Assembly: GCA_963724765.1 (NCBI GenBank)
Contig: CAVRVY010000002.1
Location: 256,001-320,000 of the forward strand
From: an uncultured delta proteobacterium
Lineage (GTDB): Bacteria; Desulfobacterota; Binatia; Binatales; Binataceae
DNA length: 64,000 nucleotides
Direction of reading: 5' to 3'
In this document: in pieces, positions 15,814 through 31,735 of the stretch
Layout: every line of letters begins with the position of its first letter
Position numbering within the stretch: the first letter of the stretch is position 1
Program-made: the position numbers and the translations under genes
The notes under the pieces: model-generated
Told to the model about the DNA's origin: nothing
The model's database searches: none
What the model saw: the letters and a program-made list of their open reading frames with translations, nothing else

Positions 15814-17229
15814 CTACGCGCGGCGCGCCGCCGCCGCCGGCTCCAGCAGCGGCTCGTCGGCTGCCGGCTCCGGCAGCCCGAGCCGCCGCAGCACTTCGCG
15901 CTGGCCGACCCGCAGGCCGCGGTCGGCCAGCTCGGACACCATATCGGCGAACAGCTTGACGTCGTTGTCGGCGCTGAGGCCCAGCGCGATCTGCGGATAG
16001 CGGCGCTGCGGTCCCAGGTTGAGATCGACGATCGGCCGCACCAGATCGCGCGTGAGCGTCGCCCCCAGGCGGCGCGCGTCGGACTCCATGATGTCGCGGC
16101 GCACCGCGTCGTGCACCTGGGCCGCCGCCCGCGAGCCGCCGCCCTCGCGCGGCGTCTCGGTGGTCAGCGTCTGCCCCAGCACGGCCTTGCTCACCTGCTT
16201 GTCGAGGTACTCGCAGAAGCGCTCGTAGACTTCGGCGCCGCCGCCCTGGCGGGTCTCGACGAATTCGATCAGCATCGACTCCGGAATTATCGCGGCCGCA
16301 TCCGTGCCGATATTCGCGACCGCGCTCAGCAGCGCCTGCTTGTCGGCTTCGGTTGCGCCGGGGCTGTATTTGCCCAGACGCAGCGGCTGGCCGAAGACCT
16401 CGGCGAACGTCACCCAGTCCTTGAGCACGTAATTCTTGAACAGGTAGGCCCATCCGGCCGCCCGCGCAATTCCGCCGCGCACCGGCAGTCCGGCCTTGGC
16501 CTTGGCCGTGTGCACGATAAACTTGAACGGCGCGAGCGGCGCCGTCAGCGGCTGGATTCCAATTCGCGCCTCCCCGCCGGCCCCGGCGTACCATCGCGAT
16601 CGCCCGTAATGCGGCGCGTGCGCCGCCGGCGCATCGGGCGACAGTTTCGCGGGCGAGACCGCCGCGGCGTCCGCCGGCACCAGCGGTCCTTCGTCGCGCA
16701 GCGTGCGCACCAGCAGTTCCTCGCCCGAGATCCAGTCGAACATGAACCAGCGCGGGTCGCGCCACAGCAGGCGCTTGGGGATCCATTCGCGGCCGCTCGT
16801 GTCCCAGATTATTTCGGTTGCGGAGAAGCCCTTGCCGACCGCGTCGAGGATATCGTAGAGCGCGCTTTCGAGGTCGAACGCGCCGCCGCCGACGAAGTCG
16901 CGCACCAGGTCGGCCGCGCGCCGATCTTCGGGCGCAGCGGAGGCCGGCGTGACGATCAGCTCGGCCCCGGCGACGGCCTGTTTGCGGGTGCTGATCACGG
17001 CCAGGTAATGCAGGTCCTTCTCTTCCATCTCCTCGGCCAGTTCGAGGTAGAGATAAGGATCGCCGGCTTCGGCCTCGCGCTGGATCGCGATCAGCTTTTC
17101 GGGCGTGAGCCCGACCGACGGATGCATCATCGAGTAGATATTGCGCACGCCGGCCATGGTGGGCGCGGCCTGCTCGCCGCGCAGTTGTGCGGTATCGACC
17201 TCGCGCCCGTACGCGTCATACAACTTCAT
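15814..17229 (-). CDS. Mu gp29-like portal protein (DUF935)
   Basis: EMEEKDLH, DAVGKGFS, YLFKNY..KDW..FAEVFGQPLRLGKY, SKAVLGQTLTT, VH..VR.DI. Confidence 0.92.
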   Translation of the reverse strand: MKLYDAYGREVDTAQLRGEQAAPTMAGVRNIYSMMHPSVGLTPEKLIAIQREAEAGDPYLYLELAEEMEEKDLHYLAVISTRKQAVAGAELIVTPASAAPEDRRAADLVRDFVGGGAFDLESALYDILDAVGKGFSATEIIWDTSGREWIPKRLLWRDPRWFMFDWISGEELLVRTLRDEGPLVPADAAAVSPAKLSPDAPAAHAPHYGRSRWYAGAGGEARIGIQPLTAPLAPFKFIVHTAKAKAGLPVRGGIARAAGWAYLFKNYVLKDWVTFAEVFGQPLRLGKYSPGATEADKQALLSAVANIGTDAAAIIPESMLIEFVETRQGGGAEVYERFCEYLDKQVSKAVLGQTLTTETPREGGGSRAAAQVHDAVRRDIMESDARRLGATLTRDLVRPIVDLNLGPQRRYPQIALGLSADNDVKLFADMVSELADRGLRVGQREVLRRLGLPEPAADEPLLEPAAAARRA

Positions 17230-17306
17230 GCTTTCTCACCAACCTGGTTCTTATGCTTTCTTCTTTTAAGCAAGGGGGCAGCGGCGCAATTCTCCCGGCC
17301 CCCCCT

Positions 17307-18839
17307 CTACATCCACGCCCACGCGCGCGCGCGGCTCCCGCGCGCGGCCAGCGGCGCCGCGTCCTCGTCCGGCGGCCCGAACGGATCGCGCTCGCGGCGC
17401 GCGGACGCCGTCGCCGCCGCGCGCCGCGGCGCGGGCGTGTAAGCGGGTTCCTGGGCGCGGATACTGCTCGCATAGTAGGCGAGCGCGCCGGCGATCGCCG
17501 CGTCGCCGTGGCGTCCCTTCTGATCGCGCCGCTCCGACACATGGGCGTAGCCGTGCTCGATTTCGAGTGCGCGATGGTCCGCGAGGATTTCCGCGTCGCA
17601 CGGCAGCTCGACCATCCCGTCCTCGAACGCCGCCTTGTAGCGCGGCATATTCTCGCGGTACCACTGCGCCGAGAGCATCACCTGCTCGACCCGTGCGCCG
17701 TAGCGCTGGCGCGCGGTCTCGGCCAGGTATTGCCCGTTGCCGCGCGCGTCCAGCGCGCCGCCGATGAGGCGCGGCAGCCGGTCCACGATATAAAACAGAA
17801 TCTGTTCCTGCTGGCGGAAGGGCACCCGGCGCAGCTCGACCACGAACGGCGTGCGCCGCACCAGGTTGGGCTGAATCTGCAGCGGCCAGAAGACGCTCAG
17901 GTCGCCGTTGCGCCCGAAGTCCTCGCCGAAGCAGCTCATCAGGTTGTCCAGCCGCTTGAGCGCCGGGTCGAGGTTGCGCTCGCACCATTCGCGCGCCGCG
18001 CCCACCCGATACTCCTCGGGCCGTTCGCTGAACTCCTCCGCCACTTCCCAGCGCAGCACCGGCACGCCCGCGCGCATCCGGCTCTCGACCAGCATCGAGC
18101 TCAAAAACGCGCCCGAACTCGCGCGCGGCACGCACAGCAGTTCCTCGCTCGCGGCGTCGCCGTACTCGGCGAAGATCCGCGCGCGCCACTCGCGCTCGGC
18201 CGCCGCGCTGAAGCGCCGCCCCGCCTTCTGGCACATCCGATGGTACAGCCCCTCGCAGAGCGCGTCGTCCAGCGTCACGCGATGGAGCGAGAACGGACGG
18301 CGGCCGGCACGGATGTCGTTGACCAGCTCGTTGAACGGGTTCTCGGCCCCGTTGTGAGTCGAGATCACGCGCACCAGCCCGCCCCACATGGTGAACGCCA
18401 TCGCGGCCTTCATCAGTTCGGGGAGGTTGTCGTGGAAGGCGGCCTCGTCGATCACGGCGCGGCCCTGTTTGCCGCGCAGGTTGGAGGGGCGCGAGCTGAG
18501 CGCGACGATTTTGTGTCCGGAGGCGAAGCGGATTCGATAGGCGAGCAGGTCGCGGCGCTCGTCCTCCAGCGCGATCTCTTCGATCGCGTGCGCCGCCTTG
18601 TTGAACTGGCGCGCCCACGCGGCCGCCGTCTCGACAAACTCGCGCGCCATGTCGCGGTTGTAGCCGAGGTACCAGGTGTCCATCCCGGCCGTGGCCGCGG
18701 CCGAGAGCGCGGCGTCGGCGGCCTCGGCCCAGGTGATCCCGACGCGGCGCGATTTCTCGGCCACCTTGACCGCGGCGTTGTCGGCGATCCAGCGCACCTG
18801 GTAGGGCAGGAGGACGTCGCGCGCGACGGTGTGAATCAT
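17307..18839 (-). CDS. Mu gp28-like terminase large subunit
   Basis: LLPYQ..W, Walker A KSRRVGITW, NLRGKQG, Walker B VIDEAAFH, STHNG, nuclease GEDFGRNGD, HGDAAIA. Confidence 0.92.
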   Translation of the reverse strand: MIHTVARDVLLPYQVRWIADNAAVKVAEKSRRVGITWAEAADAALSAAATAGMDTWYLGYNRDMAREFVETAAAWARQFNKAAHAIEEIALEDERRDLLAYRIRFASGHKIVALSSRPSNLRGKQGRAVIDEAAFHDNLPELMKAAMAFTMWGGLVRVISTHNGAENPFNELVNDIRAGRRPFSLHRVTLDDALCEGLYHRMCQKAGRRFSAAAEREWRARIFAEYGDAASEELLCVPRASSGAFLSSMLVESRMRAGVPVLRWEVAEEFSERPEEYRVGAAREWCERNLDPALKRLDNLMSCFGEDFGRNGDLSVFWPLQIQPNLVRRTPFVVELRRVPFRQQEQILFYIVDRLPRLIGGALDARGNGQYLAETARQRYGARVEQVMLSAQWYRENMPRYKAAFEDGMVELPCDAEILADHRALEIEHGYAHVSERRDQKGRHGDAAIAGALAYYASSIRAQEPAYTPAPRRAAATASARRERDPFGPPDEDAAPLAARGSRARAWAWM

Positions 18840-18985
18840 GCTGGGGGGGGCGCGGTTTGTTCGCCGGCTTTTTCCGCACTCTGGGCGGCACCGGCGCCGC
18901 CAGTTTTGTCGCTCTTGACCCGCCGCGGCTGCGCCTGGGGAGGTGCGTCGCCGTCCGTTTGCGCTCGCGTAGTCCTGCGATTCAT
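18836..18985 (-). CDS. 49-aa low-complexity ORF coupled to terL, or a frameshifted terL N-terminus
   Basis: RBS GGAGGTG before ATG 18985; ends CCC CCC CCA GCA TGA overlapping the terL ATG; C8 tract at the junction. Confidence 0.45.
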   Translation of the reverse strand: MNRRTTRAQTDGDAPPQAQPRRVKSDKTGGAGAAQSAEKAGEQTAPPPA

Positions 18986-19012
18986 CGCGTCACCTCCCAT
19001 TTTTTCATTGAC

Positions 19013-19079
19013 ACTCGCGACGCCCCTCCGATGTCGGCGCTTGTGCGATGCTGGGCGTTCTGTTTGCTGGCTCGCGCAA
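19013..19079 (-). repeat. ~67-bp conserved leader element (copy 1), 28 nt upstream of ATG 18985
   Basis: Aligns with 22746-22813, with identical ends and a variable centre. Confidence 0.8.
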
Positions 19080-19138
19080 ACGTCTTACTCACAAATCCCT
19101 CGTCGCCGCTCCGACGCCGCGGCTGATAGCGTTGCCAC

Positions 19139-19837
19139 TCATCCCTCACTCCGCGTCAGCTCATCGCTCGGCGCTGGGGCCGCCTCGATCGCTTCGCCCG
19201 CAGGCGGCGCCATCTCCGCGCGCCCCGGCGCACCGGCGCCGGCCGCCAGGCGATGCGCCGCCGCGGACGCCTGATCGTTGCTCGCCATCGGCATCTCGAC
19301 GATTTCGAGCAGCGCGGCGCGGATCCGCTTCTCGGCCGTGGCCGACAGTCCCCCCTGCGCCCCGCGGCGCGCCGCCGCGACCACTTTGCGCTCGGCCGTC
19401 ATCACCCGCCGACCGATCCCGCTGCGCATTTCCTCGGCCGCCCGCCGCATATGCACCGCGGAGCGGCAGATCGAAGCGACGTTGCGCGCGAGCGCATTGA
19501 TGTCGATCTTTTTGGGATCGACCTCCTTGAGTTCGACCAGCACGCGGAAGAGATCGCCCTGCACCAGGCGCATCAGGCCCTCGTTGACCGTGTCGTCGGC
19601 GCCGCCCGAGGCGTCGACCACGGCGCGCGCCTGCTCGGTTGCGAGCTTGAGCGCGTTCAGCTTGCGCTCCAGCGCATTGCCGTAACGCTGGAGCGCCGAA
19701 TGCGTGATCTCGCATCCATGCTCGCCGAGCCATCGCGCCAGCCCGCGATAGTCAGAGAAGGAGCCCGCGACCAGACGGCGGTCAAACTCGGCCCGCAGCT
19801 CAGGCGCCAGGCTCTTGATCTTTCCATTGCGCGGCAT
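19139..19837 (-). CDS. Mu gp27-like protein (DUF3486), probable small terminase
   Basis: MPR..KI..L..ELR..FDRRL....FSDY..LA.WL...G.EIT.SAL.RYG; position before terL. Confidence 0.85.
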   Translation of the reverse strand: MPRNGKIKSLAPELRAEFDRRLVAGSFSDYRGLARWLGEHGCEITHSALQRYGNALERKLNALKLATEQARAVVDASGGADDTVNEGLMRLVQGDLFRVLVELKEVDPKKIDINALARNVASICRSAVHMRRAAEEMRSGIGRRVMTAERKVVAAARRGAQGGLSATAEKRIRAALLEIVEMPMASNDQASAAAHRLAAGAGAPGRAEMAPPAGEAIEAAPAPSDELTRSEG

Positions 19838-20086
19838 GCTTTACCGATCCTCGCGGCGCCGCTCCGAGGTCGCGGCTGTTCGCATTGAGCAACGATGATT
19901 TCCGTGGCCTCGCATTCTCATTCCCGCGCATCGCGCTTTTTTCACCATCACTCGCACTGCCGCGTTTTTTCCTCTCCCGCTTTTTTTCAATGCCCTCGCC
20001 CGCAAAACGATGCGGGCGAGGGCTCAGAAAAGATGCCGCGAATTCCTCCCTTGGCCGTTCTCCTCAACCCGGCCCATCGCCCGTCC

Positions 20087-20407
20087 TCACCAATACTTGC
20101 GCGGGCGCGCGATCCCGGCGGGCGCCGGCGCGGTGTACTCGACCACGTCGACGCCGCTCGCGGTCATCCGCGCATACCAGGTCTCGTTGTCCTCGCCCTC
20201 GATTTCGAGCAGGCCGCGGTCGCGCAGGTAGGTCAGCTCGCGGCGCAGCGCATTGAGCGTGATCGCGAGCTTGATATCGGCCAGCACGCGCCACACGATA
20301 GTTTCCGAAACCGCGATCGGGCGGCCGGCGTCGAGCACGCGCAGGATCCGCCAACGGGCCTCCTCGCGTTGCTTCTGCTCCAGGTTCATCACATCCATCT
20401 GCTTCAC
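20087..20407 (-). CDS. Mu gp26-like winged-helix protein
   Basis: RWRILRVL...LRRELTYL.DRGL...A.MTA.GVDVVE.....PAGIARP. Confidence 0.8.
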   Translation of the reverse strand: MKQMDVMNLEQKQREEARWRILRVLDAGRPIAVSETIVWRVLADIKLAITLNALRRELTYLRDRGLLEIEGEDNETWYARMTASGVDVVEYTAPAPAGIARPRKYW

Positions 20408-20475
20408 TCTTTCACCGTTTCGCTTTGACGCGAGCTGCGCTCGCTGCCGTCCGCCGCGCGGCGGCCTGCGCGCCG

Positions 20476-20811
20476 CTAGAGCGCGTCGATACGTTCGCCG
20501 ATACGCTCTTTGAGTTCGGTGATTTCGGCCCGCAACTCGGCCCGCATCGCGTCCAGCTTGGCGTCCAGCGTGCTCGAGAAACGAATCCAGTCCTCGCGCC
20601 GCACGTACTCCAGCGGCAATTGCGCCTTGAGCTTCATCACCTGGCGCTCGACCTCGTGCGAGAAGTCGCTGCCCTCGCGCTTGAGCGAGGCCATCTGTTC
20701 CGCGGTCGCGCCTTCATGCCGCTCGAACAGCCATCGCAGCGTCCCCGCGTTGAGCGCGATGAAAGCCATCAGCGCCGCCGCCATCGTCCCCAGCGCGTTC
20801 CAGCCCATCAT
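20476..20811 (-). CDS. Mu gp25-like membrane-anchored coiled-coil protein
   Basis: N-terminal TM; LPLEYVRREDW motif; position in the gene order. Confidence 0.75.
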   Translation of the reverse strand: MMGWNALGTMAAALMAFIALNAGTLRWLFERHEGATAEQMASLKREGSDFSHEVERQVMKLKAQLPLEYVRREDWIRFSSTLDAKLDAMRAELRAEITELKERIGERIDAL

Positions 20812-21044
20812 TTGCGTTCGGGCTCCGTACGCGACTTGATTGCCAGCGCCCCCGCCATCGCCAGCAGCACCATTCCGAGCCCACGCCCGTACGCGTCCGC
20901 GTCGCCCGGCGTGAAGCGCCAGGTCGCCAGCACCTGCACCACCCAGAACACCACGTACATCAATGCGCCCAGCACACCGATCACCCGGCCGGCGTCGTAG
21001 GTCAGGTTGTCCTTGCCGGTCAGGCAGTCACTCACGAACTTCAT
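20808..21044 (-). CDS. Small two-TM protein, putative holin
   Basis: MKFVSDCLTGKDNLTYDAGRVIG; two hydrophobic segments; basic tail; in the lysis cassette. Confidence 0.6.
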   Translation of the reverse strand: MKFVSDCLTGKDNLTYDAGRVIGVLGALMYVVFWVVQVLATWRFTPGDADAYGRGLGMVLLAMAGALAIKSRTEPERK

Positions 21045-21418
21045 TGCGTATTCTCCGCCTGCGGCTGTGCCGCCGGATGGCCGGCGTGCGTGCATCCCGC
21101 AAGCACCGCATCGCGCTCGCGTACCGCACCCTTCAAAATCGCCACCGCGGCCGCGTACGCGCGCATCGTGTCGGCGGGCGGTGAGTCGGGCTTGAGCGAG
21201 GCCAGCGGCAGCGCCGGATCAGTGAGCGTTGGCGCCGGACAGGCGGTCTCGTGCAGCACCGGCACCTGCACCATCAGCGGACGTACCGCGGGCGCGGAGC
21301 CCGCGCCGGCGGCGCATCCGGCGATCGTTACGGCGGCGCTCGCAGCGATCGCAGCGAGCATCGCAAGCGCGCCGAAAGATCCCGCGCGGCGCGAGGTCTC
21401 GCTGGCAACGGCCAGCAC
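21041..21418 (-). CDS. Rz1-like o-spanin lipoprotein (start uncertain)
   Basis: Lipobox TIAG-C followed by Pro-rich VQVPV...CPAP...P.LP and a C-terminal helix ending LAGC. Confidence 0.65.
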   Translation of the reverse strand: MLAVASETSRRAGSFGALAMLAAIAASAAVTIAGCAAGAGSAPAVRPLMVQVPVLHETACPAPTLTDPALPLASLKPDSPPADTMRAYAAAVAILKGAVRERDAVLAGCTHAGHPAAQPQAENTQ

Positions 21419-21708
21419 ATTCGCGCCCTGTTCTTTTTCCTGCTCTCGCCCGCGCGACTTCTTATGTCTGTGCGCGGGAGCGGGCAGGGTGAGGTCCCCC
21501 CCTTCGTGGCGCAATCGCACGCTCCAAAGTCGAGCGCGTTGAAACGATGGACTCTCACCCGCACCCGCTCCCGCAAATAAGGCGGGCGAGCGCTCAGACC
21601 GCAACGCCGCGTGCGAGAGATCGCGCGCGCCTGGAGTGTCGAGGGCGCTCTCCGGCTCCCACTCCTTGTCCAAGGAGAGGATTGGAGAGAGGTTCATTGC
21701 CTCGCGTA

Positions 21709-22110
21709 TCACCATCGGCCGAGCTCCGCCGCTTGCGCGTTGCCCCAGCGGACCGCCGCCGCGCAGCCGGCGTCGATCCGCGCGCCCTCCAGCGTTTGCG
21801 CGCCGCTCGTCGCCGTGCGCATCGCCGCCGTTGCTTTCTCCGTCGCCGCGCGCTCGCGCGCCGCCGCCTCTTGCACGCCTTGCTCGAGCTGCGCGCGCAG
21901 TTGCGTCACCGCCGAGTTCTGGGTCGCGATCGCGCCCTGCAGTGCCGTGTTGCTCGCCTCGGCGTCGGCCAGCGAGGCGCTCAGATGCGTGGCTTCGGCG
22001 CGCGCGGCGTCGCGCTGATGAAGCAGCAGCGCGCGGTAACCCAGCGCCGCCGCGATCACCAGCGCGATCGCCGCCGGCCGCCAGAGCTTCGCCGCCAATA
22101 GAGGAAACAT
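21709..22110 (-). CDS. Rz-like i-spanin
   Basis: N-terminal TM + Ala-rich coiled coil + C-terminal Cys; lies downstream of the endolysin. Confidence 0.7.
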   Translation of the reverse strand: MFPLLAAKLWRPAAIALVIAAALGYRALLLHQRDAARAEATHLSASLADAEASNTALQGAIATQNSAVTQLRAQLEQGVQEAAARERAATEKATAAMRTATSGAQTLEGARIDAGCAAAVRWGNAQAAELGRW

Positions 22111-22133
22111 CGCCTTGCCGTGCGCCTGCCGGC

Positions 22134-22721
22134 TCAGCTCTGCGGCGCGGCCGCGACCGCTGCGGCCGCCACCGGCGTCACGCTCGCGCCCATCGCCGCA
22201 CCAGCCGCGTGCAGCGGCGTGGCAAACGTCGCCGCGGACATCGTGGCAGGCGCCGGATGCGATCCCATCTCGACCGCCGCGGCCACTGTCGCCGCGCCGT
22301 GATCGTCGACCGCCTGCGCATGCTTATCGACCGCCGCCGCCAGCTTCTCGACCGCGCTGGCATGATGCTCGAGCGCGACGGCCTGCGCCGCCGCTGCGCT
22401 TGCGGCCGTGGGTGCGGTTGATGCCGCCGGCGCGGGCTGAAGTGCGGCAGCCGGTTGCATCGCCGCCGCCGTCGACACCGCCGACACCGTCGACACCGTC
22501 GATCGGACCGGTGCGGCCGAGTTGCCGTTGGCCGCGGTCGTCGAGCCAGCCGTGGTGCTGTGGCCGAGTACCAGTTGTTCGAGCGAAGACAGACGCGTCT
22601 GCACGGTGCTCAGCGCGGTGCCCACCTCCGTCATCATCCAGCGCCCGACAAGCGCGCCGATCGCAAAGCCGCCCACCGCGACCATCATGTAGCCTGCTGC
22701 CATTCCTGGATCGATATTCAT
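22134..22721 (-). CDS. Ala/Thr-rich membrane-anchored hypothetical protein
   Basis: ATG 22721 after AAAGGTGA; TM YMMVAVGGFAIGALVG; repeated H(A)..AV heptads. Confidence 0.6.
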   Translation of the reverse strand: MNIDPGMAAGYMMVAVGGFAIGALVGRWMMTEVGTALSTVQTRLSSLEQLVLGHSTTAGSTTAANGNSAAPVRSTVSTVSAVSTAAAMQPAAALQPAPAASTAPTAASAAAAQAVALEHHASAVEKLAAAVDKHAQAVDDHGAATVAAAVEMGSHPAPATMSAATFATPLHAAGAAMGASVTPVAAAAVAAAPQS

Positions 22722-22745
22722 CTTTTCACCTTTTTTTTCACCGAG

Positions 22746-22813
22746 ACTCGCGACGCCCCTCCAATGTCGGCGCTTGTTCCGCCGCCGGACGTTCCGTTTG
22801 CTGACTCGCGCAA
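22746..22813 (-). repeat. ~68-bp conserved leader element (copy 2), 25 nt upstream of ATG 22721
   Basis: Aligns with 19013-19079. Confidence 0.8.
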
Positions 22814-22872
22814 CTTTTTTCACCAACGAAAAGCCGCCGCCGCTGCCGCTGCTTCTGTGATGCGGCCGCGCA

Positions 22873-23406: not shown

Positions 23407-23474
23407 CGCAGGTGGGATTCTCGCAGCCCCGCCGGCTTCGCATAAGGGTGAAATATTTGGCGAGTATGCTGGAC

Positions 23475-24416: not shown

Positions 24417-24508
24417 AGCGTCCGAACTGGCGGATGCTTCTGCATCACGCGTCCAGTAGGCCGGTTCAATTGAAGTTGAAATTCTAAGAGGCTGCATGAG
24501 ACGATCTA

Positions 24509-24664
24509 ATGCCCAAACAAATCAAACAGACCCCGCCACAACCCGTCCCTGTCAAATCACCACCGCCGCTGACAATTCCGCCGAACAAGACTTCGATACA
24601 CACTCAAGAAAGTCCGCCGCCACTAAGACATCCACCCCACAAAGAAGTGAAGAAAGGCGGTTAG
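24509..24664 (+). CDS. 51-aa Pro-rich basic peptide (below ORF-track cutoff)
   Basis: Manual translation MPKQIKQTPPQPVPVKSPPPLTIPPNKTSIHTQESPPPLRHPPHKEVKKGG; convergent overlap with 24623-25246; positional analog at 27957. Confidence 0.5.
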   Translation: MPKQIKQTPPQPVPVKSPPPLTIPPNKTSIHTQESPPPLRHPPHKEVKKGG

Positions 24665-25246
24665 CTGCGGGCCAGCACCCAAACTCCAAATCTCAACTAA
24701 AGGCGGGATGAGCACGACGACCAACCCCGCCAGCAGAAGATAATGGCTCCAACGAACATACAACGCTTTTCCAAGATTGATCTGGTCTGCCGACTTGACC
24801 GCGCGGTACATGGCAATGAGATAAAATCGCCTCAATTGATCGGGGAAATCCAAGAAATCCTCAGCAAACCAAGTGTCCTTTTCTTGGATGCCCTCAAAGA
24901 TTCGAACGCGGAAGGCGAGAACCGCAAGCCCTGCGGCAACCATCAGCATGATAAGTCCAAGGAATATAAATATTCCGCCTCCAGTAACCTCGGTTATCAA
25001 TCCTTTCCAGTACGAAAAGGTCGAAATTAGAAGAGCGACAATGCCACCCACGAAACTGGCGGACAGTTGGGCTTTCGAATCAAGCACATCCGTTATCTTG
25101 TTTGTCTGTTCGAGCAGCAAAGAACCGAAATCGTACAGGACTGGTGTGCTTTCTTTGTTCGAGTGGCGGGTAAGTCTACAGAGCACCTCTCTCTCTCCTG
25201 GCACCGGCGTTCCGTTTGAATGTTGTTCCGTCAAAAGGCTTTCCAT
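24623..25246 (-). CDS. Multi-TM cargo protein resembling Pycsar-effector-type membrane proteins
   Basis: LDSKA before a TM hairpin; N..KA.....S..LL before the last TM; similar to 28053-28667. Confidence 0.65.
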   Translation of the reverse strand: MESLLTEQHSNGTPVPGEREVLCRLTRHSNKESTPVLYDFGSLLLEQTNKITDVLDSKAQLSASFVGGIVALLISTFSYWKGLITEVTGGGIFIFLGLIMLMVAAGLAVLAFRVRIFEGIQEKDTWFAEDFLDFPDQLRRFYLIAMYRAVKSADQINLGKALYVRWSHYLLLAGLVVVLIPPLVEIWSLGAGPQLTAFLHFFVGWMS

Positions 25247-25362
25247 CGGTTTTATGACCTCACTTCAATCACGACCCGATCTTAATCGACATGCAATATA
25301 AGTTTATCAAACAGGGTAGGCGTGCCTGAAGATGCTTCCTGTCTGCTCTTGTGGAGGCCGTT

Positions 25363-25521
25363 ATGTCTAAGGAAGGCGAGGCCAAAAAGAAGATCATTCA
25401 CTTCTACTGCCACACCTGTAAGGCATACGAACTGAAAACCAGTCCGCACTATCGCGCTCAGAAGGTGCGCTTCGCAAAGCGGCGCAAGGCGGAAAAGGCG
25501 CAAGCAGAAATGCCGAAATGA
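25363..25521 (+). CDS. 52-aa basic peptide with H.YCHTC...H putative Zn site
   Basis: GGAGG RBS; MSKEGEAKKKIIHFYCHTCKAYELKTSPHYRAQKVRFAKRRK...; TGA overlaps the next ATG. Confidence 0.6.
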   Translation: MSKEGEAKKKIIHFYCHTCKAYELKTSPHYRAQKVRFAKRRKAEKAQAEMPK

Positions 25522-26369
25522 AGCATTCATCGATTCTGATTGCAGCAACAGTTCTGCTCCTAGCCGCCGCAAACAGTAGAGTGCCAAGCGGTCCACAACA
25601 AACACCCCAAAGCGAAGCAACAACCAAAGATAGCAACGGCAGCAGCCGTCCAAGGCGAGTTGCCGCTCAGAATGAGCCAACAATAAACAGCGCCGCTCCC
25701 CATAGCGACCACGACACCTATAACTATTACGGCGACCTCAAGTATGTTTCCTATAATTCCGCACTCAAGGGCTTCTGGGCTAAAATTGGGCAAATAGCAG
25801 ACGCAATTTCGGCGGTATTGATAGCCTTTTTTACGGGGGCTCTGCTGTGGCTCACCAGAATGCAGTTTGTTGCCGAACACCGGCCAAGGATGCGGCTCCG
25901 TAGAGTGAAATTGTTGACCGATATCTCTAATCCCGACGATTGGATCGACACGACCCTTGAATTTGAGTTGCTGATTACAAATCAAGGCGGGACTAAGGCA
26001 ATGTTCACTAGCAGCAATATAGCCATCGGCATAGGTCGGAGGACTGAACCAGACCCGACGACATTGTTTACCATTGAGCCCGCAAATATCCTCAAAGGAT
26101 ATAAATTGAATCCAGGGGTCGAGTACACCCACAAATTCACTGCCAATAAATGTCAGTCTTTGTTGGATATCTTGGTCAGAATGAGAGTTCGGAATGATAT
26201 GTTCCTTTATGTTGTAGGAGACTTCTGGTATCGAGATCGCCTGAGACAACGGTATTACAAGACGGCTTTTTGTAGACGCCTGACCGAAGGTGAGAAAGTT
26301 TTGAACATACAAAAGACGCTCCCGCGATTTATTGTCGTGAACAACCCCGAATATGAGTACGCCGACTAA
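25518..26369 (+). CDS. IS cargo: signal/TM hypothetical protein related to 5809-6585
   Basis: TM AVLIAFFTGALLWL, then HRPR...ITNQGGTKA...G...YRD...TAFC. Confidence 0.75.
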   Translation: MKHSSILIAATVLLLAAANSRVPSGPQQTPQSEATTKDSNGSSRPRRVAAQNEPTINSAAPHSDHDTYNYYGDLKYVSYNSALKGFWAKIGQIADAISAVLIAFFTGALLWLTRMQFVAEHRPRMRLRRVKLLTDISNPDDWIDTTLEFELLITNQGGTKAMFTSSNIAIGIGRRTEPDPTTLFTIEPANILKGYKLNPGVEYTHKFTANKCQSLLDILVRMRVRNDMFLYVVGDFWYRDRLRQRYYKTAFCRRLTEGEKVLNIQKTLPRFIVVNNPEYEYAD

Positions 26370-26623
26370 AATCAGGGCCAGCGCCAGCGGCCACGCTACG
26401 TAGCCCGCTTGATGCGGGCATCTTAACGGCGGATCGTCGCCCCCGTCCGACGAACCCCCTGAGTCAGAATCCGGCCTGTCCCTGCCTACGGTAGGCGAAC
26501 CGGACATTGGAGTCAAGTTCAGCATACTCGCCAAATATTTCACCCATAGCCTTGCGCAAGGCGGCGCTTCGCACGCTCTGCATCGTGGCAGCCAAAGCGA
26601 AACAGCTACCCCCGCAAATCCGA

Positions 26624-26739
26624 CCGCCGGGGTCGGCCGGATTATAGACGTAGCCGCCCTCGTCGCTGAGCAGCCGGGCGATCGCGCGCTCGAAGGCCGA
26701 CGGATAGTTTTGTGTTTGCGTGCTGTCTTGCGGGTCCAT
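26624..26739 (-). pseudogene. Duplicated 5' fragment of the endolysin gene
   Basis: MDPQDSTQTQNYPSAFERAIARLLSDEGGYVYNPADPGG, then diverges at the duplication junction. Confidence 0.9.
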
Positions 26740-26850
26740 CGCAGGCGGGATTCTCGCAGTCCCGCCGGCTACGCATAAGGGTAAAATATTTAGGGATGAT
26801 TCACTTGACGAAGGGATATGGGTTTGCTAGTATCCCCTAAATGCAGCGGT

Positions 26851-27009
26851 TCACTTCTTCTTTTTGGCCTCGTCTTCAAGCTCTCTGCGGCGCTTGTCCG
26901 CTTGCTCGGCTAGGGTCTTTCGTATCGAGCGCACAAGGTCTTGCGTTGGCACTTTCTCGATATTGGGCGTGCGCGGTTCGTCTGTCTGTTTACGGCTCGG
27001 CTTTGACAT
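26851..27009 (-). CDS. 52-aa charged peptide divergent from the transposase
   Basis: GGAGCGGGG RBS-like; MSKPSRKQTDEPRTPNIEKVPTQDLVRSIRKTLAEQADKRRRELEDEAKKKK. Confidence 0.45.
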   Translation of the reverse strand: MSKPSRKQTDEPRTPNIEKVPTQDLVRSIRKTLAEQADKRRRELEDEAKKKK

Positions 27010-27031
27010 ATCCCCGCTCCGGAGAATCGTT

Positions 27032-27916
27032 ATGAATCTGTCCGCCATCAACCATCTGTTTTCGACTAAAGAACAGTGTCGCGAACTGCTCAAGCGGCTG
27101 CGTTGGCCCAAAGACGTTAGCTGCCCGCGTTGTAATCACGACGCCGTTTGTTGGCTCAACACTCAGGAAAAATTTGAATGCTCTAAGTGTTCCTATCAGT
27201 TCAGCGTCACTGCTGGGACCATTTTTCACGATTCCCATTTGCCGCTCGAAAAATGGTTCTTCGCTACCTTCCTCATGTGCGAGGCCAAGAAGGGCATCTC
27301 GGCTCGCCAGATGCATCGGATGCTTGGCGTCGGTTCTTACAAAACCGCCTGGTATCTCTGCCATCGCATACGCGCCGCGATGAAAGAGGAATTGCCCGCG
27401 CGGCTCAAGGGCGTTATCGAGGCTGACGAAACCTATGTCGGCGGACGCGCGCGCGGCGCTGGCAAAGGCCACTATCACGATACCAAGGCAATCATTCTTG
27501 GGGCAGTCCAGCGCGGCGGCCCGATCCGTCTCAAGGTCGCGAACGACAATCGCAAAGCAACCTTGCACGAATTCATCCGGAGTAACGTTGATCCAGAAAG
27601 TAAGCTCTACACTGACGAATGGCCCGGCTATAACGATCTTCCTAATCGCGAGACCGTCAATCACCGCGCGAAGGAATACGTGCGCGCCGATGTCCATACC
27701 AACTCGGTTGAGTCTGTATGGAGCTTGTTCAAACGCTCGATTGTCGGTCCGTATCATCATCTGAGCGAGAAACATATGCAGTCGTACTTGGATGAAATCA
27801 GCTTCCGGTTTAACCGTCGCAAGAGCGATGAATTGTTCATCGAGACTTTGCGCGCATTGGTACAAACGCCAGCATTAACGTTTAGCCGTCTGACGCGCGA
27901 GCAGGTGGCTGTTTAA
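27032..27916 (+). CDS. IS1595-family DDE transposase
   Basis: GGAG RBS; CPRC...CSKC; IEADETY, YTDEW, HTNSVESVWS, YLDEISFRFN. Confidence 0.95.
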   Translation: MNLSAINHLFSTKEQCRELLKRLRWPKDVSCPRCNHDAVCWLNTQEKFECSKCSYQFSVTAGTIFHDSHLPLEKWFFATFLMCEAKKGISARQMHRMLGVGSYKTAWYLCHRIRAAMKEELPARLKGVIEADETYVGGRARGAGKGHYHDTKAIILGAVQRGGPIRLKVANDNRKATLHEFIRSNVDPESKLYTDEWPGYNDLPNRETVNHRAKEYVRADVHTNSVESVWSLFKRSIVGPYHHLSEKHMQSYLDEISFRFNRRKSDELFIETLRALVQTPALTFSRLTREQVAV

Positions 27917-27956
27917 GTTATCTGGTGCTGATTTTTCCTTCATAGGGGGATTCTTG

Positions 27957-28133
27957 ATGGCTAATGACGATCAATCAAAATCTACCGGTACCGGTAGCAC
28001 TGGCTCTTCTGGCTCCAACCAAAGTGGTGGTGGCGAATCATCACAAAAACCATCATTGCATCCTTCCCGCGATGCCAAGCCTCGGCCAAACATTGCCATT
28101 AAGAGCAACCAAGGTGGGAACGTGAAAAAATAG
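27957..28133 (+). CDS. 58-aa Ser/Gly-rich peptide (below ORF-track cutoff)
   Basis: AGGGGG RBS; MANDDQSKSTGTGSTGSSGSNQSGGGESSQKPSLHPSRDAKPRPNIAIKSNQGGNVKK; convergent overlap with 28053-28667. Confidence 0.55.
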   Translation: MANDDQSKSTGTGSTGSSGSNQSGGGESSQKPSLHPSRDAKPRPNIAIKSNQGGNVKK

Positions 28134-28667
28134 AGTTAGTACGTGCACGACCAATCCACCAGCTAGAAATGCTGCTGCGAAGAGCAGCAAACGTTGACTG
28201 GATAGCAGGAGCCTGCCCTTCTGCTCGGCTAAAGCATTTTGCGATTTGCGCACTCCGTGCCAACAGCGAATATGGAAGCGCTTCAATTCGTCTCCATTGA
28301 CTAGCGCGCTTTTCTCAAACCAATCTGCATCACTCGGACATTCCCATGCGTAACGCGCGCGCAACGCCCGATACGCCTGGATCGCTGCAAATAAGGCGCA
28401 GAGAGCGCCCAGCACGATAAATCCTAGGCTTAACGTAACACTATGGGGAGGATCAAGAAGAAAAGCTAAGACCGCAGTGGACCAGCCAAGAACCATCGCC
28501 GCTTTGGAATCAATTTGGCTACTGCGCTGCTGAACTTCTGCCATTAACATTTGTCCGAACGATGCCAATTCGTCAGTCACTCCCTCCTCTTCATATGAAT
28601 AGACAAGTTCTTGTACTTCCTCACTAGAGAGGTCGTTCTGCTGAACAGTAAATCTAGCCATCATCAA
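28053..28667 (-). CDS. Multi-TM cargo protein resembling Pycsar-effector-type membrane proteins
   Basis: IDSKA before a TM hairpin; W(F)E...DELKRFH; N....KG..L..S..LL. Confidence 0.65.
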   Translation of the reverse strand: MMMARFTVQQNDLSSEEVQELVYSYEEEGVTDELASFGQMLMAEVQQRSSQIDSKAAMVLGWSTAVLAFLLDPPHSVTLSLGFIVLGALCALFAAIQAYRALRARYAWECPSDADWFEKSALVNGDELKRFHIRCWHGVRKSQNALAEQKGRLLLSSQRLLLFAAAFLAGGLVVHVLTLFFHVPTLVALNGNVWPRLGIAGRMQ

Positions 28668-28673
28668 GCTCCC

Positions 28674-29567
28674 TTAAAATGCCTCAACTTCGCCGCTTAA
28701 CGCTTTCAAAACTAAAGGTAGCGAAGGTGTCGTTTCTTTTAGCTCGCAGGCCATGGCTGTTATCGCACTTTTACAAACGTCGAAGAGAACTAGGGCCTTG
28801 TCTTCGTCCAAATTGTCTTCAGGGTGAATAATAGGATTCCTGTGCATCTCTCTAATCTGGTCAATGAGGGCAATAGTCTTGACGTCTGGCCTCAGAGTCT
28901 TGTTTGGATCGTTGGCACATTTGGTCAAAATCTTTGTATAAGCTCCCCAATTGCGCATCTTCGGTTTTGGTTTAGTGCCGACAAAGCGCTCATAGTAGAT
29001 ACGCAAGACAGCATCTGTCGCGCGAAGAATGTGAAAGCCAGTGGCGGTGAACAGATCGAATGCGAGGCATTTGCCAGCTTGTCGAAAATCATTGACAGCT
29101 TGACCTGAAATTTCAGCGCGCAGACTAGCTGACAAAGCATTTTCGGCACGTTCAATCAGATCGGCTGTGGAGTATATACCTTTTTTTGAAACCGTATATG
29201 TATCCGCCGTACTTAACTCAGCGGACAATACGGTCTGAAATTCACTAATGGCATCGCGCACATAATACGATGCCATGACGTCTAGTGTCGGCGGGTCGGT
29301 TTCGTTCGTACCTTTGTCAATGGCTTGGCGTATAATTTTGGTGGCTTCGGCGTTTTGTTCGTTGACCAACTCCTTGAGCTTAAGCGTAGTTGCACGAACG
29401 ACCTGAAGGGTCAGCGCCTCTACCTTGAGAAGAGCGCTCAACCAACGAGACGCATTGAAATAATCATAAGTCAAATCCTGAAGCGGGGTGCCGCTCTCAG
29501 ACTTTAGCCCCAGCGCACGAATAATCGCCCCACCCTCGTAGAAGAAAAATGAATTTAGACGCTCCAA
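28674..29567 (-). CDS. HEPN-domain protein (putative RNase effector)
   Basis: Helical protein with A..CLA...TA.GFH.LRA and Rx4H motif RNPIIH; TTG start inferred after GGGGAAAG inside the IS. Confidence 0.7.
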   Translation of the reverse strand: MERLNSFFFYEGGAIIRALGLKSESGTPLQDLTYDYFNASRWLSALLKVEALTLQVVRATTLKLKELVNEQNAEATKIIRQAIDKGTNETDPPTLDVMASYYVRDAISEFQTVLSAELSTADTYTVSKKGIYSTADLIERAENALSASLRAEISGQAVNDFRQAGKCLAFDLFTATGFHILRATDAVLRIYYERFVGTKPKPKMRNWGAYTKILTKCANDPNKTLRPDVKTIALIDQIREMHRNPIIHPEDNLDEDKALVLFDVCKSAITAMACELKETTPSLPLVLKALSGEVEAF

Positions 29568-29603
29568 TTTACTTTCCCCCAAAGGCACTATGGCCCATTG
29601 GGC

Positions 29604-29632
29604 AGCATACGGTTCGGTTGTCCCTTCGTCAA
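29604..29632 (-). promoter_or_regulatory. Inward sigma70-like promoter from the right TIR of IS element 2, positioned to drive HEPN + TM genes
   Basis: TTGACG-17bp-TATGCT on the minus strand. Confidence 0.55.
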
Positions 29633-29784
29633 GTGAATCATCTCGAGATTTTTCACCCATAGCCTTGCACAAGGCGGCGCTTCGCACGCTCTGCGTCGTG
29701 GCAGCCGAAGCGAAACAGCTACCCGCGCAAATCCGACCGGCGATTGCGATCAGCGATTGAAGGACCGCGCGCTGCTGCGATTCG

Positions 29785-30126
29785 TCAAACCGAGCGCGGG
29801 TCCGCGCAAATCTCGCGGCGTGCGTCGGCCAGCACCTGGAATACGCGCCGGCGCGTGCAGCTCAGCGTGCGCGCGATCTCCTCGACGCTGCGGCCCGCGG
29901 CGCGCAGCGCCAGAATCTGCGTGCGGCGCGGCGGCGGCTTGGGCAACTCCACTCGCTCGCCGCCAAACATCTCGGCCAGCTTCATTGCCGCTCCCGTGCC
30001 GACCGCGCGCGCCAGGGCGTCGTTGGCGCTCGGGCTATGCGGGACATACAGGCGGGTACCTCCGAAGCTGGCGATCAGCTTGGCGGCCGCTTCTTCGCCT
30101 ATGATCTCGACGATGAACCCCAGCAT
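29785..30126 (-). CDS. Mor/C-family phage transcriptional activator
   Basis: IG..AA.KL...FGGTRLYVP, FGGE.V.LP, C-terminal HTH; GGAGG RBS. Confidence 0.82.
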   Translation of the reverse strand: MLGFIVEIIGEEAAAKLIASFGGTRLYVPHSPSANDALARAVGTGAAMKLAEMFGGERVELPKPPPRRTQILALRAAGRSVEEIARTLSCTRRRVFQVLADARREICADPRSV

Positions 30127-30416
30127 GGATATCTACCTCCCCCGGGTTTCGCTTCGCCTGCGGCTCCGCGCCATCCTCTTCCGCCACCTTTGGCAGTGCG
30201 AAATGGTCCTCTTTGATGGGCTGTGCTTCGACCGTCCGCTCGCGCCGCCCAGCGACGGCCGCGAAAGGTTCGGATTGAAGCGGAAATGTTCCAGATTGTG
30301 ACAGCGGCGTTACAGTCGGAGCGCGCGGATGAGATGCCGCCGCATTGCGACGAGCGTCGACAAATTGGCGCGCGACGCCATCGAATTGTCGCTCCGATCG
30401 GCATACGCATAAGGTC

Positions 30417-30776
30417 TCAGGCGGCTTGCGCGGGTTTGTGTGCCGCCGCGGTTAGCTCGTGCGCGATACGGTCGAGCAGCCCGGCGAAGTCGGCGTCGGC
30501 CAGCCGGCGGCGCGCGACCACGTTGCAGGCGTGGATGACGCTGGTGTGATCGCGCGCGAAAGCCATGCCGATACGAGGAAATGAGGCCGCCTGGCGCCGC
30601 CGTCCCATCCATCCGCCGCCTGCCAGCTCGCGGCTGAGATACATCGCCACCTGGCGCGCACCGGCGACGCGATGGCGGCGCTTACGCGAGAGCATCTCGC
30701 TGATATTGAGGCAAAACGCACGCGCCACGGCGTGCTGGACATCGGCGATCGATATGCAACCGGGACGGTCTTCCAT
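30417..30776 (-). CDS. Stand-alone DnaA C-terminal (domain IV) DNA-binding protein
   Basis: I.DVQ.AVA..F......LS..R...VA.ARQVAMYLSREL...SFPRIG..F.RDHTSVIHA. Confidence 0.85.
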   Translation of the reverse strand: MEDRPGCISIADVQHAVARAFCLNISEMLSRKRRHRVAGARQVAMYLSRELAGGGWMGRRRQAASFPRIGMAFARDHTSVIHACNVVARRRLADADFAGLLDRIAHELTAAAHKPAQAA

Positions 30777-31078
30777 TGCAACGGTCCTCCTGTCATTGGC
30801 GCGCCTGGCGCATGGCGCGAACACTTGTTGGATAATGCGAGGCACGCTAATTGCGTATTCCGGGTGATCGAGTCGTGAATTGGGAATCCATGGCCGGCGC
30901 TGCGCGCCGTGCGCGCGCGTAGTATCGGACAGACCGCGCTGGCGGTGAGGATTTAACACTTGTTTGAAGATCGAGACCGAAAAGCTTTGTGCGGGCGACG
31001 AAAATAGCCCATAAAAATGGTTCAACGAGCGAATCCAGCAAACATAGCCACGGGCATTTATCCCACAGTGGGAGGAAG

Positions 31079-31735
31079 ATGTCAACTACAGTAGGAGAAG
31101 AGGAGTTCCGCCGGCGTCTGCGCCTGATCATGCAACAGTTTGGATCGGTCGCGGATCTCGCGCGGGCTGTCGGAGTATCGGACAACGCCATCTACAAATG
31201 GGTTTCCGGCCGCGGGCAGCCAAGTATGATCAGTCTCGTTAATCTGGCGCGTGCCGCGCGGGTCTCGATCGAGTGGCTGGCGACCGGACAAGACGCCCCC
31301 AAGGGCGAAGTGCGGGGAGCGGAATCCGGCGAGTACGTATATCTGCCGCGCAACTCGGTGCGCAGCTCAGTTGGCCGGGGTACTGTGCAGAGCCACCAGA
31401 TTGTCGACTACCTGGCGCTCAAGGCTGAATGGCTGCGGCGCCGTATCAATATCGATCCGAAGAGCCTGATGCTGATCGAGGCGGTGAGCGACTCGATGAC
31501 GCCCACGATCGAAGAGGGCGATCTGGCGCTGGTTGACTTGCGGGATCCGCGTTTTCGTCATGACGGAGTTTACGTACTGCGGACGGGCGGAGATCTGTCG
31601 ATCAAGCGTATCCAGCGCCGCCCCGACGGCAAGCTGATCATCCGCAACGACAACGCCGCCTATGAGCCGACGGTCGTGACCGCCGACAGCGTCAATGTCG
31701 TGGGTCATGTAATATGGATCGCTGGACGGCTGTGA
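31079..31735 (+). CDS. CI-like repressor (XRE HTH + S24 peptidase)
   Basis: GGAGG RBS; HTH LARAVGVSDNAIYKW; WLATG; DSMTPTI and IKRI catalytic dyad. Confidence 0.9.
   Translation: MSTTVGEEEFRRRLRLIMQQFGSVADLARAVGVSDNAIYKWVSGRGQPSMISLVNLARAARVSIEWLATGQDAPKGEVRGAESGEYVYLPRNSVRSSVGRGTVQSHQIVDYLALKAEWLRRRINIDPKSLMLIEAVSDSMTPTIEEGDLALVDLRDPRFRHDGVYVLRTGGDLSIKRIQRRPDGKLIIRNDNAAYEPTVVTADSVNVVGHVIWIAGRL

Follow-up and report, generated by a model that had tools for sequence, protein, structure and literature searches.

The window analysed here is a stretch of 64,000 nucleotides (contig CAVRVY010000002.1, positions 256,001 to 320,000, forward strand) from the genome of an uncultured member of the Binataceae (GCA_963724765.1). 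It carries one half of a Mu-like phage element, a block of regulation, lysis and DNA-packaging genes that runs from a repressor to a portal protein, and which, as an earlier reading of this DNA (the sequence-only reading) had suggested, may be a vertically inherited Mu-type gene transfer agent or programmed-lysis device rather than debris. This genome is called G000 below and relatives have other G numbers; g numbers are genera, G000 belonging to g1. The window corresponds to C2:256001-320000, C2 being the 561-kb contig of the 4-contig, 5.4-Mb genome. Since the window is interior to this continuous contig, there is no assembly break near the element, a concern that the sequence-only reading had raised. 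The open reading frames (ORFs) of the window were assigned to families by profile searches with Pfam and PHROGs, and the genes of the block are the following (aa, amino acids).

15693-15739 and 15751-15788, minus strand: two perfect GC-rich hairpins after the portal stop codon, with stems of 22 bp and 18 bp
15814-17229, minus strand: Mu-type portal, 471 aa (Pfam PF06074 Portal_Mu, E 8.5e-106)
17307-18839, minus strand: terminase large subunit TerL, 510 aa (phrog_2, 1.1e-35)
19139-19837, minus strand: Mu gp27, the small terminase TerS (Pfam PF11985, 3.6e-29; phrog_426)
20087-20407, minus strand: gp26-like protein, 106 aa (phrog_436, 2.8e-28; BcepMu gp26, 40%)
20476-20811, minus strand: gp25-like protein, 111 aa (phrog_462, 2.3e-13; BcepMu gp25, 33%)
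20808-21095, minus strand: o95, 95 aa, in the lysis-cassette position, conserved in the genus and in other genera
21709-22110, minus strand: candidate Rz-like spanin, 133 aa (phrog_214, weak)
22134-22880, minus strand: ORF of 248 aa in the lysin-spanin interval, partly conserved in the genus, with partial tblastn matches only
22873-23406 (ORF to 23484), minus strand: endolysin with GH108 and PG_binding_3 domains (PF05838, 3.3e-24; PF09374, 4.5e-10)
29785-30126, minus strand: Mor/C-family transcription activator, 113 aa (Pfam PF08765, 2.2e-10)
30417-30776 (ORF to 31085), minus strand: Bac_DnaA_C protein (DnaA domain IV, HTH; PF08299, 4.2e-19)
31079-31735 (ORF from 30989), plus strand: CI/LexA-type repressor with HTH_3 and Peptidase_S24 domains (PF00717, 3.2e-18; PF01381, 5.6e-9)

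The S24 repressor, DnaA-domain-IV protein, Mor activator, GH108 lysin, gp25, gp26 and gp27 homologues, TerL and portal of the sequence-only reading were all recovered by these searches. All element genes in the window lie on the minus strand except the repressor, which holds the SDSM and IKRI motifs and is transcribed divergently from the DnaA_C and Mor genes. The DnaA_C gene, with its likely true start at 30776, is the first gene of the early transcript, in the Ner/Cro position. It adjoins the repressor in g1, g13, g15 and g17, and it is the sole gene between repressor and Mor in G000 and five genera. TerL obtained no Pfam family and no match in a PDB sequence search, its identity being given by PHROGs; it is 57% identical to BcepMu gp28, and its ATPase and nuclease motifs (KSRRxGxTW, AVIDEA, STHNG, GEDFxRxGD and RHGD) are invariant across 26 genomes. 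TerS aligns with positions 1-172 of the 173 of the PF11985 profile and is therefore untruncated. The lysin, with its likely true start at the ATG at 23406, has the EGGY motif, so that the key motifs are kept as had been noted.

Of the lysis genes that had been claimed, the lysin stood, the spanin was found as a single weak Rz-like match (6.4e-4), and the holin obtained no family match. The spanin candidate keeps its gene order across genera and has an N-terminal hydrophobic stretch by eye. No Pfam or PHROG family was matched by o95, which is the candidate holin, with a transmembrane segment seen by eye near its N-terminus; the 248-aa ORF likewise had no match in either database. BcepMu gp25 is annotated as a lipoprotein or putative inner membrane protein.

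The sequence-only reading had the block stop after the portal at a 22-bp hairpin, and both perfect hairpins are followed by host genes; the pair (15693-15788) marks where the lysis-packaging operon ends. Host genes were identified by Pfam on both sides of the block, with DUF2844, DUF3443, phosphorylase, PBP5 and ATP-dependent DNA ligase on the portal side, and an acyltransferase followed by methylamine dehydrogenase on the repressor side. The host-like high GC ascribed to the element genes was not borne out: for GC content at third codon positions (GC3), TerL and portal rank at the 99th-100th percentile when set beside 3318 long ORFs of the genome, and GC1 and GC2 are ordinary.

The head and tail genes had been predicted to lie elsewhere, without MuA or MuB, and they were found 21 kb off on the same strand. 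A whole-genome search gave a single Mu-like gpT in G000, at C2:247605-248522, 23 kb below the portal and on its strand. It is part of a head-tail half that extends from C2:250714 down to 232467, again on the strand of the portal block, and in which Pfam identified Mu-like protease I, gpT, Gp36, Gp37, sheath, tube and tail assembly chaperone, P2 gpU, gpD, V, W, J, I and fibre proteins; scaffold, adaptor, tape-measure and baseplate genes belong to this half too, the tail being contractile. The halves are separated by host genes over 21 kb and by a third element of the IS1595 family, and the whole element spans C2:232467-287735 (55 kb) in G000. In G001 and G005, too, the interval from portal to protease I is occupied by the same host genes. 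Two routes to the split were rejected. Recombination of identical insertion sequence (IS) copies fails, as identity among the three IS1595 transposases is no more than 40-62%; a composite transposon with the 21-kb host stretch inside fails since the portal end has no IS and G005 has the host genes without IS.

The missing Mu early block of the sequence-only reading was confirmed, with DnaA_C alone between repressor and Mor and no Mu or BcepMu transposase in the genome. The Mu transposase core PF02914 was absent from all five genomes searched, G000 included, and from all 16 in the genus; as a positive control, it was detected in 9 of 165 family genomes. PF09299 was not found in the one genome searched (G000), where the control was also silent, making this result uninformative. 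BcepMu transposase gp09 gave no tblastn match in G000, and neither GemA nor the rest of the Mu early region had a match in the element. Eight genomes have both MuA and the conserved portal, on different contigs in all eight. Since the element has no transposase, MuB, MuF or integrase, it is unable to replicate or move in the manner of Mu.

MuF was found in G000 solely in a separate, unrelated BcepMu-like remnant on contig C1 (C1:460085-469289; loci L002 and L005). This remnant has GemA, Mor, lysin, gp25, gp26, gp27 and TerL on one strand, with a portal fragment and MuF inverted alongside, and a search of 60 relatives gave no match to it. Scrambled and truncated, it is the contrast that shows what real prophage debris looks like.

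The locus was compared on stretches of 40-60 kb from seven relatives, and its architecture across the family on 20 further loci and four extended ones; all relatives are metagenome-assembled genomes whose record titles read Candidatus Binataceae. The portal was found in 12 of 16 other genomes of the genus (83-94% identity) and 14 of 20 from other genera of the family (61-73%), and in none of 24 from other families of the class. Block order, post-portal end and host flanks are identical in G001, G009 and G014, and likewise in G013 up to the contig end. The fetched stretch of G005 contains the part from portal to o95, with Mor 28 kb from the portal. Hence the same truncated block is at the same locus in five species of the genus, as the sequence-only reading had anticipated. 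The head-tail half lies behind the same host genes in G001 and G005 too, and one gpT each was found in G009, G012, G013, G014 and G036, 19-35 kb off or on another contig. A fixed locus was also observed within g15, g45, g3, g21 and g49, with no varying insertion sites.

The ratios of nonsynonymous to synonymous divergence (dN/dS) were Nei-Gojobori estimates for G000 against the five species and were far below 1; values near 1 would have spoken against the sequence-only reading. They were 0.10-0.13 for TerL, 0.12-0.20 for portal, 0.09-0.18 for Mor, 0.11-0.15 for the repressor, 0.12-0.34 for the lysin, 0.04-0.17 for the gp26-like protein and 0.02-0.32 for the head and tail genes; gp27/TerS was the most relaxed core gene (0.30-0.40), and flanking host genes gave 0.03-0.61. 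For G000 and G013, TerL and portal gave 0.13-0.14. In six other genera the values were 0.07-0.23 for portal, 0.07-0.30 for TerL and 0.05-0.07 for gpT. The dS of element genes was mostly 0.2-0.5 and that of the host flanks about 0.27-0.47. Since the element has the dS of its flanks and low dN/dS, it has co-diverged with its surroundings under purifying selection.

Across the family (165 genomes, seven unpublished ones included), the portal was present in 116 genomes, in 71 of 96 high-quality ones and in 21 of 30 genera, and gpT in 121 genomes, 77 of 96 and 22 of 30, respectively. Both are nearly always single-copy and share one genus-by-genus pattern, and nearly all full-length gpT matches beyond the genus have 77-88% identity. 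In g13, g15 and g17 the element is one colinear unit in the order repressor, DnaA_C, Mor, lysin, spanin, o95, gp25-like, gp26-like, gp27, TerL, portal, protease I, scaffold, gpT and so on to the fibres. This compact unit measures 24-26 kb in G133, G136 and G149 and has no MuF after the portal; G028 has the same order to gpJ, where the fetched stretch ends, and no lysin match. The other genera have host DNA between portal and protease I, with portal-gpT distances of 4.5-43 kb, and of 1.25 Mb in the single-contig genome G083. We propose that the block in the window is the regulation-lysis-packaging half, and that both halves were once one contiguous ancestral unit of 24-26 kb, separated since then by a build-up of host DNA exactly where two late operons meet.

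Trees of portal plus TerL and of RpoB were compared for 26 genomes of 13 genera (G026 and G034 were excluded, their TerL being outside the fetched stretch), and the two matched, as expected from the sequence-only reading. All seven multi-genome genera are monophyletic in both, and the deep clades g13+g15+g17, g45+g21+g16+g46+g14 and g21+g46 are common to both; the only disagreement is the placement of g1, on a very short RpoB branch. Portal and RpoB pairwise distances correlate with Pearson 0.91 and Spearman 0.63 over 325 non-independent pairs. At the tail end, G000 (g1) shares with G133 and G136 (g15) the host flank MscS-glnA-acyl-CoA dehydrogenase-h117-h142, unchanged in gene order and orientation. 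The all-against-all flank comparison was noisy through incomplete masking of shadow ORFs, and only its within-genus counts and the checked g1-g15 signal were used.

These results bear on the explanation that the element is plain debris, a Mu-like prophage that lost its early region, was broken by insertion sequences or rearrangements, and has no function. The missing MuA/B, MuF and MuG, the three IS1595-family elements in or beside the element, the splitting of both lysin-side operators in G000 (see below) and the broken portal or gpT of some relatives would fit it, but core-gene dN/dS is 0.05-0.2 in seven genera and, even at protein divergences reaching 40%, about 90% of the copies of portal and gpT are intact, apparent breaks being about as frequent in rpoB. 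The tree is congruent with RpoB, whereas the real remnant on C1 is scrambled, truncated and unmatched in 60 relatives. Recent horizontal spread, which could make low dN/dS an artefact for debris, is countered by the matching flank dS. Hence, debris is very improbable. Vertical inheritance and selection of the element are well supported, and none of the results on synteny, dN/dS, capsid genes or contig continuity contradicted the vertically inherited Mu-type module of the sequence-only reading.

A shared putative regulatory site was found ahead of the two halves. It is a perfect palindrome of 18 bp, GGGTGAAATATTTCACCC, with TTATGC after it, and in G001, G009 and G014 its first base is 56-57 nt from the ATG of the lysin. 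Upstream of protease I, the same motif starts 55-56 nt from the ATG, both in G005 and in G000 (C2:250584-250602, where it has one extra A). It is ahead of both lysin and protease I in G018, G157, G133 and G149, and in the compact elements it sits between portal and protease I. The 5.4 Mb of G000 contain only two sites for GGGTGAAATATTTCACCC(TTATGC) at up to 3 mismatches, and its tail region gave no third copy of the operator. In G036, G120 and G130 these positions are taken by a TGAAC..GTTCA variant, of which G029 has an imperfect copy; this type-B palindrome was not found in four g45 windows. The Mor recognition helix reads CT[RSAV]RRV[FY]QVL in 12 sequences of g1, g3, g13, g15 and g17, and C[TS]ERYVYKVL in 12 sequences of g14, g16, g21, g45, g46, g49 and g50. 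Palindrome type tracks helix type, as genomes with the first palindrome are all in the first helix set and those with the variant all in the second, and this covariation probably reflects a single switch between two clades.

Mor and C of Mu bind in a region near -44. If GAGAAT, within the conserved TGCGAGAAT before the lysin, is the -10 element, the palindrome centre would be near -44. The element would thus have had two activator-dependent late promoters from the start, like Plys and PI of Mu. The split would then be tolerated since host DNA accumulated exactly between two late promoters, each with its own predicted Mor operator.

The copy in G000 has been altered around the lysin-side operator. 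The sequence-only reading described enlarged spacers with host-type repeats; what lies in the 6.3-kb lysin-Mor interval (23459-29645; GC 51-53% vs 62% for the genome) is instead two different IS1595-family transposons in tandem, E1 and E2, with four passenger ORFs.

23443-23458, minus strand: lysin-proximal half of the late operator, CACCC plus AAATATTT, then TTATGCG towards the lysin, the remainder cut off by E1
23459-26532, plus strand: E1, IS1595-family transposon (Pfam PF12762/PF12760; inverted repeats; 8-bp flanking repeat AAATATTT)
about 23511-24416, plus strand: E1 transposase
24623-25246 (weakly PycTM-like) and 25560-26543, minus strand: E1 passenger ORFs
26541-26791, minus strand: duplicated promoter-region copy, post-Mor sequence fused to the lysin 5' end (self-blastn)
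26792-29645, plus strand: E2, IS1595-family transposon (Pfam, tblastn, inverted repeats)
about 27032-27916, plus strand: E2 transposase, 40% identical to that of E1
28053-28667 (weakly PycTM-like) and 28674-29687, minus strand: E2 passenger ORFs

The cut operator was recognised via the intact GGGTGAAATATTTCACCCTTATGCG in G001, G009 and G014. The copy at 26541-26791 is 89-92% identical to 29628-29742 and 23291-23479 and has its operator split between E1 and E2; it belongs to a tandem duplication in G000 of the promoter region and the first 50-60 lysin codons, with a microhomology junction. All element ORFs are open in G000. A related IS is at the same operator site in G013, and G014 has a decayed IS beside an intact operator. 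The 8-bp AAATATTT may be the target duplication inside the operator, or GGGTGAAATATTT may instead be the IS tip. The former was adopted here because intact palindromes occur in relatives free of the IS and because of the 8-bp target duplication of the IS1595 family. Contigs of four DNA metagenome runs over 14500-32500 were pieces of 200-640 nt, whose joint sides of <30 nt were unusable. Single difference-free pieces span the lysin/E1 junction (X4) and the E2/Mor junction (X3). No RNA run was listed as containing 15814-23484.

Different IS1595-family elements occupy one and the same point, the AT-rich centre of the Mor-type operator, twice in G000 (positions 23443-23458, 26533-26545, 26779-26791 and 29646-29658) and also in G013 and G014 (L022, L038); G000 and G001 have others ahead of protease I. 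The pattern suggests a target preference of the IS1595 family for the Mor-type palindrome or its surroundings. An automatic inverted-repeat search on the other IS1595 copies gave noise-level scores only. The cargo of each transposon is a ~330-aa ORF and then a ~205-aa protein, on the strand opposite to the transposase. Between E1 and E2, the ~205-aa proteins are homologues (26% identity, E 6e-9, BLASTP), and both weakly match the Pycsar transmembrane effector PycTM in PADLOC (7.9e-4 and 2.4e-3). The ~330-aa ORFs had no family match, and those of E1 and E2 showed no similarity to each other. The cargo may represent defence pairs of a new kind, a sensor and a membrane effector, carried by insertion sequences.

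In G001, G009 and G014 (L025, L028, L038) the Mor-lysin gap has a gene for a 432-441-aa protein in place of the IS island of G000. This protein is transporter-like by sequence (major facilitator superfamily) and seemingly frameshifted in G014; by eye, there is an extra aldolase-like ORF in G014 and a small DUF559-like ORF in G001. The junction of Mor and lysin is a hot spot for foreign genes.

Judging from its genes, we consider it probable, if by no great measure, that this ancient, chromosomally fixed, vertically inherited Mu/BcepMu-derived element is kept as a gene transfer agent (GTA). The element would be GTA-like or PBSX-like, and gene transfer is most likely its selected function. In the proposed mechanism, the S24 repressor would be inactivated, most likely by RecA-stimulated self-cleavage upon DNA damage, and the early transcript would then yield the DnaA-domain-IV protein and Mor. 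Mor would bind the 18-bp palindrome, whose centre is about 44 nt ahead of the start inferred for the lysin and protease-I operons, and would switch on both late operons in trans. The TerS/TerL/portal motor would fill capsids headful-wise with chromosomal DNA, because there would be no amplified element copies to package. Tails would join the heads, and endolysin and spanins would free the particles. Induction, particle assembly, packaging of host DNA and delivery are the steps that we infer here.

Several observations weigh against a GTA. The hosts are soil bacteria that are uncultured, and the element is known here from sequence. The Mu head has a capacity of about 39 kb, and the compact form of 24-26 kb is smaller than a Mu-sized head, so that particles in those genera could carry the whole element. 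The element has no MuF or MuG, whose loss could harm virion assembly, and it was not found in 8-9 of the 30 genera. Both lysin-side operator copies of G000 are split in the centre, AAATATTT, by E1 and E2, and a genome-wide motif scan gave no intact operator from Mor to lysin; because both are split, Mor-dependent induction of the lysis-packaging operon in G000 may be impaired. The covariation of operator and Mor is statistically weak because it probably reflects one evolutionary switch. Flank synteny between genera was seen solely at the g1-g15 tail end, and the flanks of G149 (g17) matched none of the other fetched loci. G001 has an internal TAG in the portal and a split gpT, and apparent breaks occur in 12 of 116 portals and 9 of 121 gpT genes. 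Since rpoB itself was split over two frames in 3 of 28 closely examined genomes (G083, G123 and G014; L120, L122-L125), much of this apparent breakage is assembly noise, and with assembly frameshifts so frequent, single broken genes are not to be called pseudogenes. A phage-type repressor and activator are retained, and no sign of control by host regulators was seen. GC3 of the element is raised and GC1 and GC2 are not, whereas RcGTA-like clusters are described with the opposite pattern, raised GC1 and GC2, in PMC7360931. TerS spans the gp27 profile almost entirely; PMC11841831 states that the small terminase of known GTAs has no detectable DNA-binding domain.

The same domesticated element could also be a PBSX-type killer particle in which packaged DNA is an undelivered by-product. 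PBSX of Bacillus is a defective prophage or phage-like bacteriocin, contractile-tailed, induced by DNA damage and not Mu-derived. By analogy, the Binataceae element resembles it in being conserved, non-propagating and contractile-tailed, at a fixed site, with capsid and terminase kept and with a repressor expected to respond to DNA damage; it differs in having a Mor-type activator with its own predicted operator that would drive two separated operons. A contractile tail with sheath, tube and baseplate, an SOS-type repressor by its S24 motifs, and the fixed locus under purifying selection would all suit a killer, as would the fibre region, the fastest to diverge (fibre900 has 69% identity in G005, and elsewhere it can barely be detected), as for a targeting device. 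However, TerL, TerS, portal and capsid are constrained like the tail, and a pure killing device would not need them; the packaging and head genes are intact even in G083, where 1.25 Mb lie between the packaging and the head-tail genes. Tailocins have lost terminase, portal and capsid, and the Binataceae element differs from R-type tailocins in that it keeps capsid, protease, portal, TerL and TerS, all of them under constraint. We therefore regard the killer particle as rather unlikely, and a GTA as the preferred interpretation.

It is also conceivable that the element, at least in the genera with the compact form, is still a self-propagating temperate phage that co-speciates with its hosts and establishes itself through homologous recombination or functions of the host. 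In favour, the compact form is complete, colinear and below the headful of Mu, and the repressor/activator switch is retained. Contigs with element genes are also listed as viral in IMG/VR: 17 of 18 carry them in the same order, many as short fragments and with no transposase match, and the other one is a bona fide phage of the BcepMu kind that has GemA, MuF and MuG. But the 24-26 kb contain neither a transposase nor an integrase nor a replication gene, the element is single-copy at a fixed locus within genera with the dS of its host flanks, host genes are inserted inside it in most genera (4.5 kb to 1.25 Mb), and the tail-end flank is common to g1 and g15. A propagating phage is thus improbable, and a resident element serving as a GTA remains our preferred account.

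BcepMu is the closest cultured phage; identity to it is 57% for TerL and 29-52% for the tail genes, whose order is unchanged. Both BcepMu and Mu share the order lysin-Rz-gp25-gp26-gp27-TerL-portal...protease-capsid-gp36-gp37-sheath-tube-...-U-X-D-V-W-J-I-fibre with the element. Portal, gp27, protease I, gpT and gp36 match Mu Pfam families, as does Gp37, a Mor/C activator is present, and the split falls where the lys and I late operons of Mu meet on its operon map. Unlike these phages, the element has no transposase, MuB, MuF or MuG, with GemA and the remaining early genes unmatched; its locus is fixed, has host genes inside and co-diverges with the host.

RcGTA, the type of the GTAs of Alphaproteobacteria considered here, derives from an HK97-like siphovirus and is controlled by host CtrA and quorum sensing. 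The ancestor of the Binataceae element, in contrast, was a Mu/BcepMu-type contractile myovirus, in another phylum, and the element keeps a CI/LexA-type repressor and Mor, has a full-length TerS and shows raised GC3 rather than GC1/GC2. The likeness to RcGTA lies in a phage-derived head-tail-packaging-lysis set without replication or integration genes, in vertical inheritance over a higher taxon with slow evolution under purifying selection, and in genes spread over more than one locus, RcGTA having a multilocus genome (PMC5026251). VSH-1 of Brachyspira is likewise a prophage-like GTA with a divided genome, going by the title of Stanton et al. 2009 (via PMC11841831), in an unrelated host and presumably from an unrelated phage ancestor.

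The titles and abstract openings found in the literature describe neither a GTA derived from Mu nor a prophage of the Binataceae, and the main text of the Binatota genome paper has no occurrence of phage, prophage, viral or gene transfer. It is tentatively suggested, as a possibility, that the element is a GTA of independent origin, the first derived from a Mu-type phage and the first in the Binatota, in which loss of the transposase changed a phage that packaged itself and flanking host DNA into a device for in-situ packaging of the chromosome, and Mor acting in trans let the operons scatter. Only a handful of independently evolved GTAs are recognised, and each bears on the debate whether bacteria keep phage particles for gene exchange. 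If the suggestion is correct, a GTA would have arisen from a transposable, contractile-tailed phage in a phylum without a cultured member, the Binatota, for which we know of no described mechanism of horizontal transfer. If packaging also starts at a pac site near the repressor end, the element would be a built-in lateral transducer of the neighbouring chromosome. The element would illustrate dispersal without loss of function, with up to 1.25 Mb of host DNA at an operon boundary and the same palindrome on both operons, and a heterologous host would allow the predicted pair of Mor and operator to be tested directly. For those who annotate genomes, the 17 IMG/VR contigs are a warning that virus-prediction tools list a host-inherited element as a virus.

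The host stretch that parts the two halves, and the gene that faces the portal from it, contain the following features.

1-15692, running on to C2:250715 beyond the window: host stretch between the halves (Pfam, tblastn)
172-1956: ATP-dependent DNA ligase
2969-4330: GT2/methyltransferase
4411-5658: PBP5-type carboxypeptidase
about 6776-7306: IS1595 transposase fragment
7542-9017 and 12560-13726: two DUF3443 genes
9756-12329: phosphorylase
13723-14238: DUF2844
15041-15661, plus strand: o206, 206 aa, convergent to the portal

The transposase fragment is the fourth of the IS1595 family and is within a low-GC patch (53.5%) at 6001-8000 of the window. No family match was obtained for o206. Its N-terminus is hydrophobic-looking by eye, and several paralogues are found elsewhere in G000. 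Homologues with 31-41% identity follow the portal in g1, g16, g21, g45, g46 and g49, and o206 may have been recruited into the element or may simply belong to the host. In g45, a Methyltransf_24 gene lies after the portal on the opposite strand (G083, L076:11052-11858, and homologues), and the noisy flank comparison gave the same position in g16, g21, g49, g3, g46 and g50; this gene is another early passenger of the gap between portal and protease I. On the other side of the block, an Acyl_transf_3 acyltransferase (32169-33449, plus strand) adjoins the repressor in G000, G001, G009 and G014. The right end of BcepMu also holds an acyltransferase, with no tblastn match between the two, and the gene beside the repressor may once have served lysogenic conversion, or it may belong to the host.

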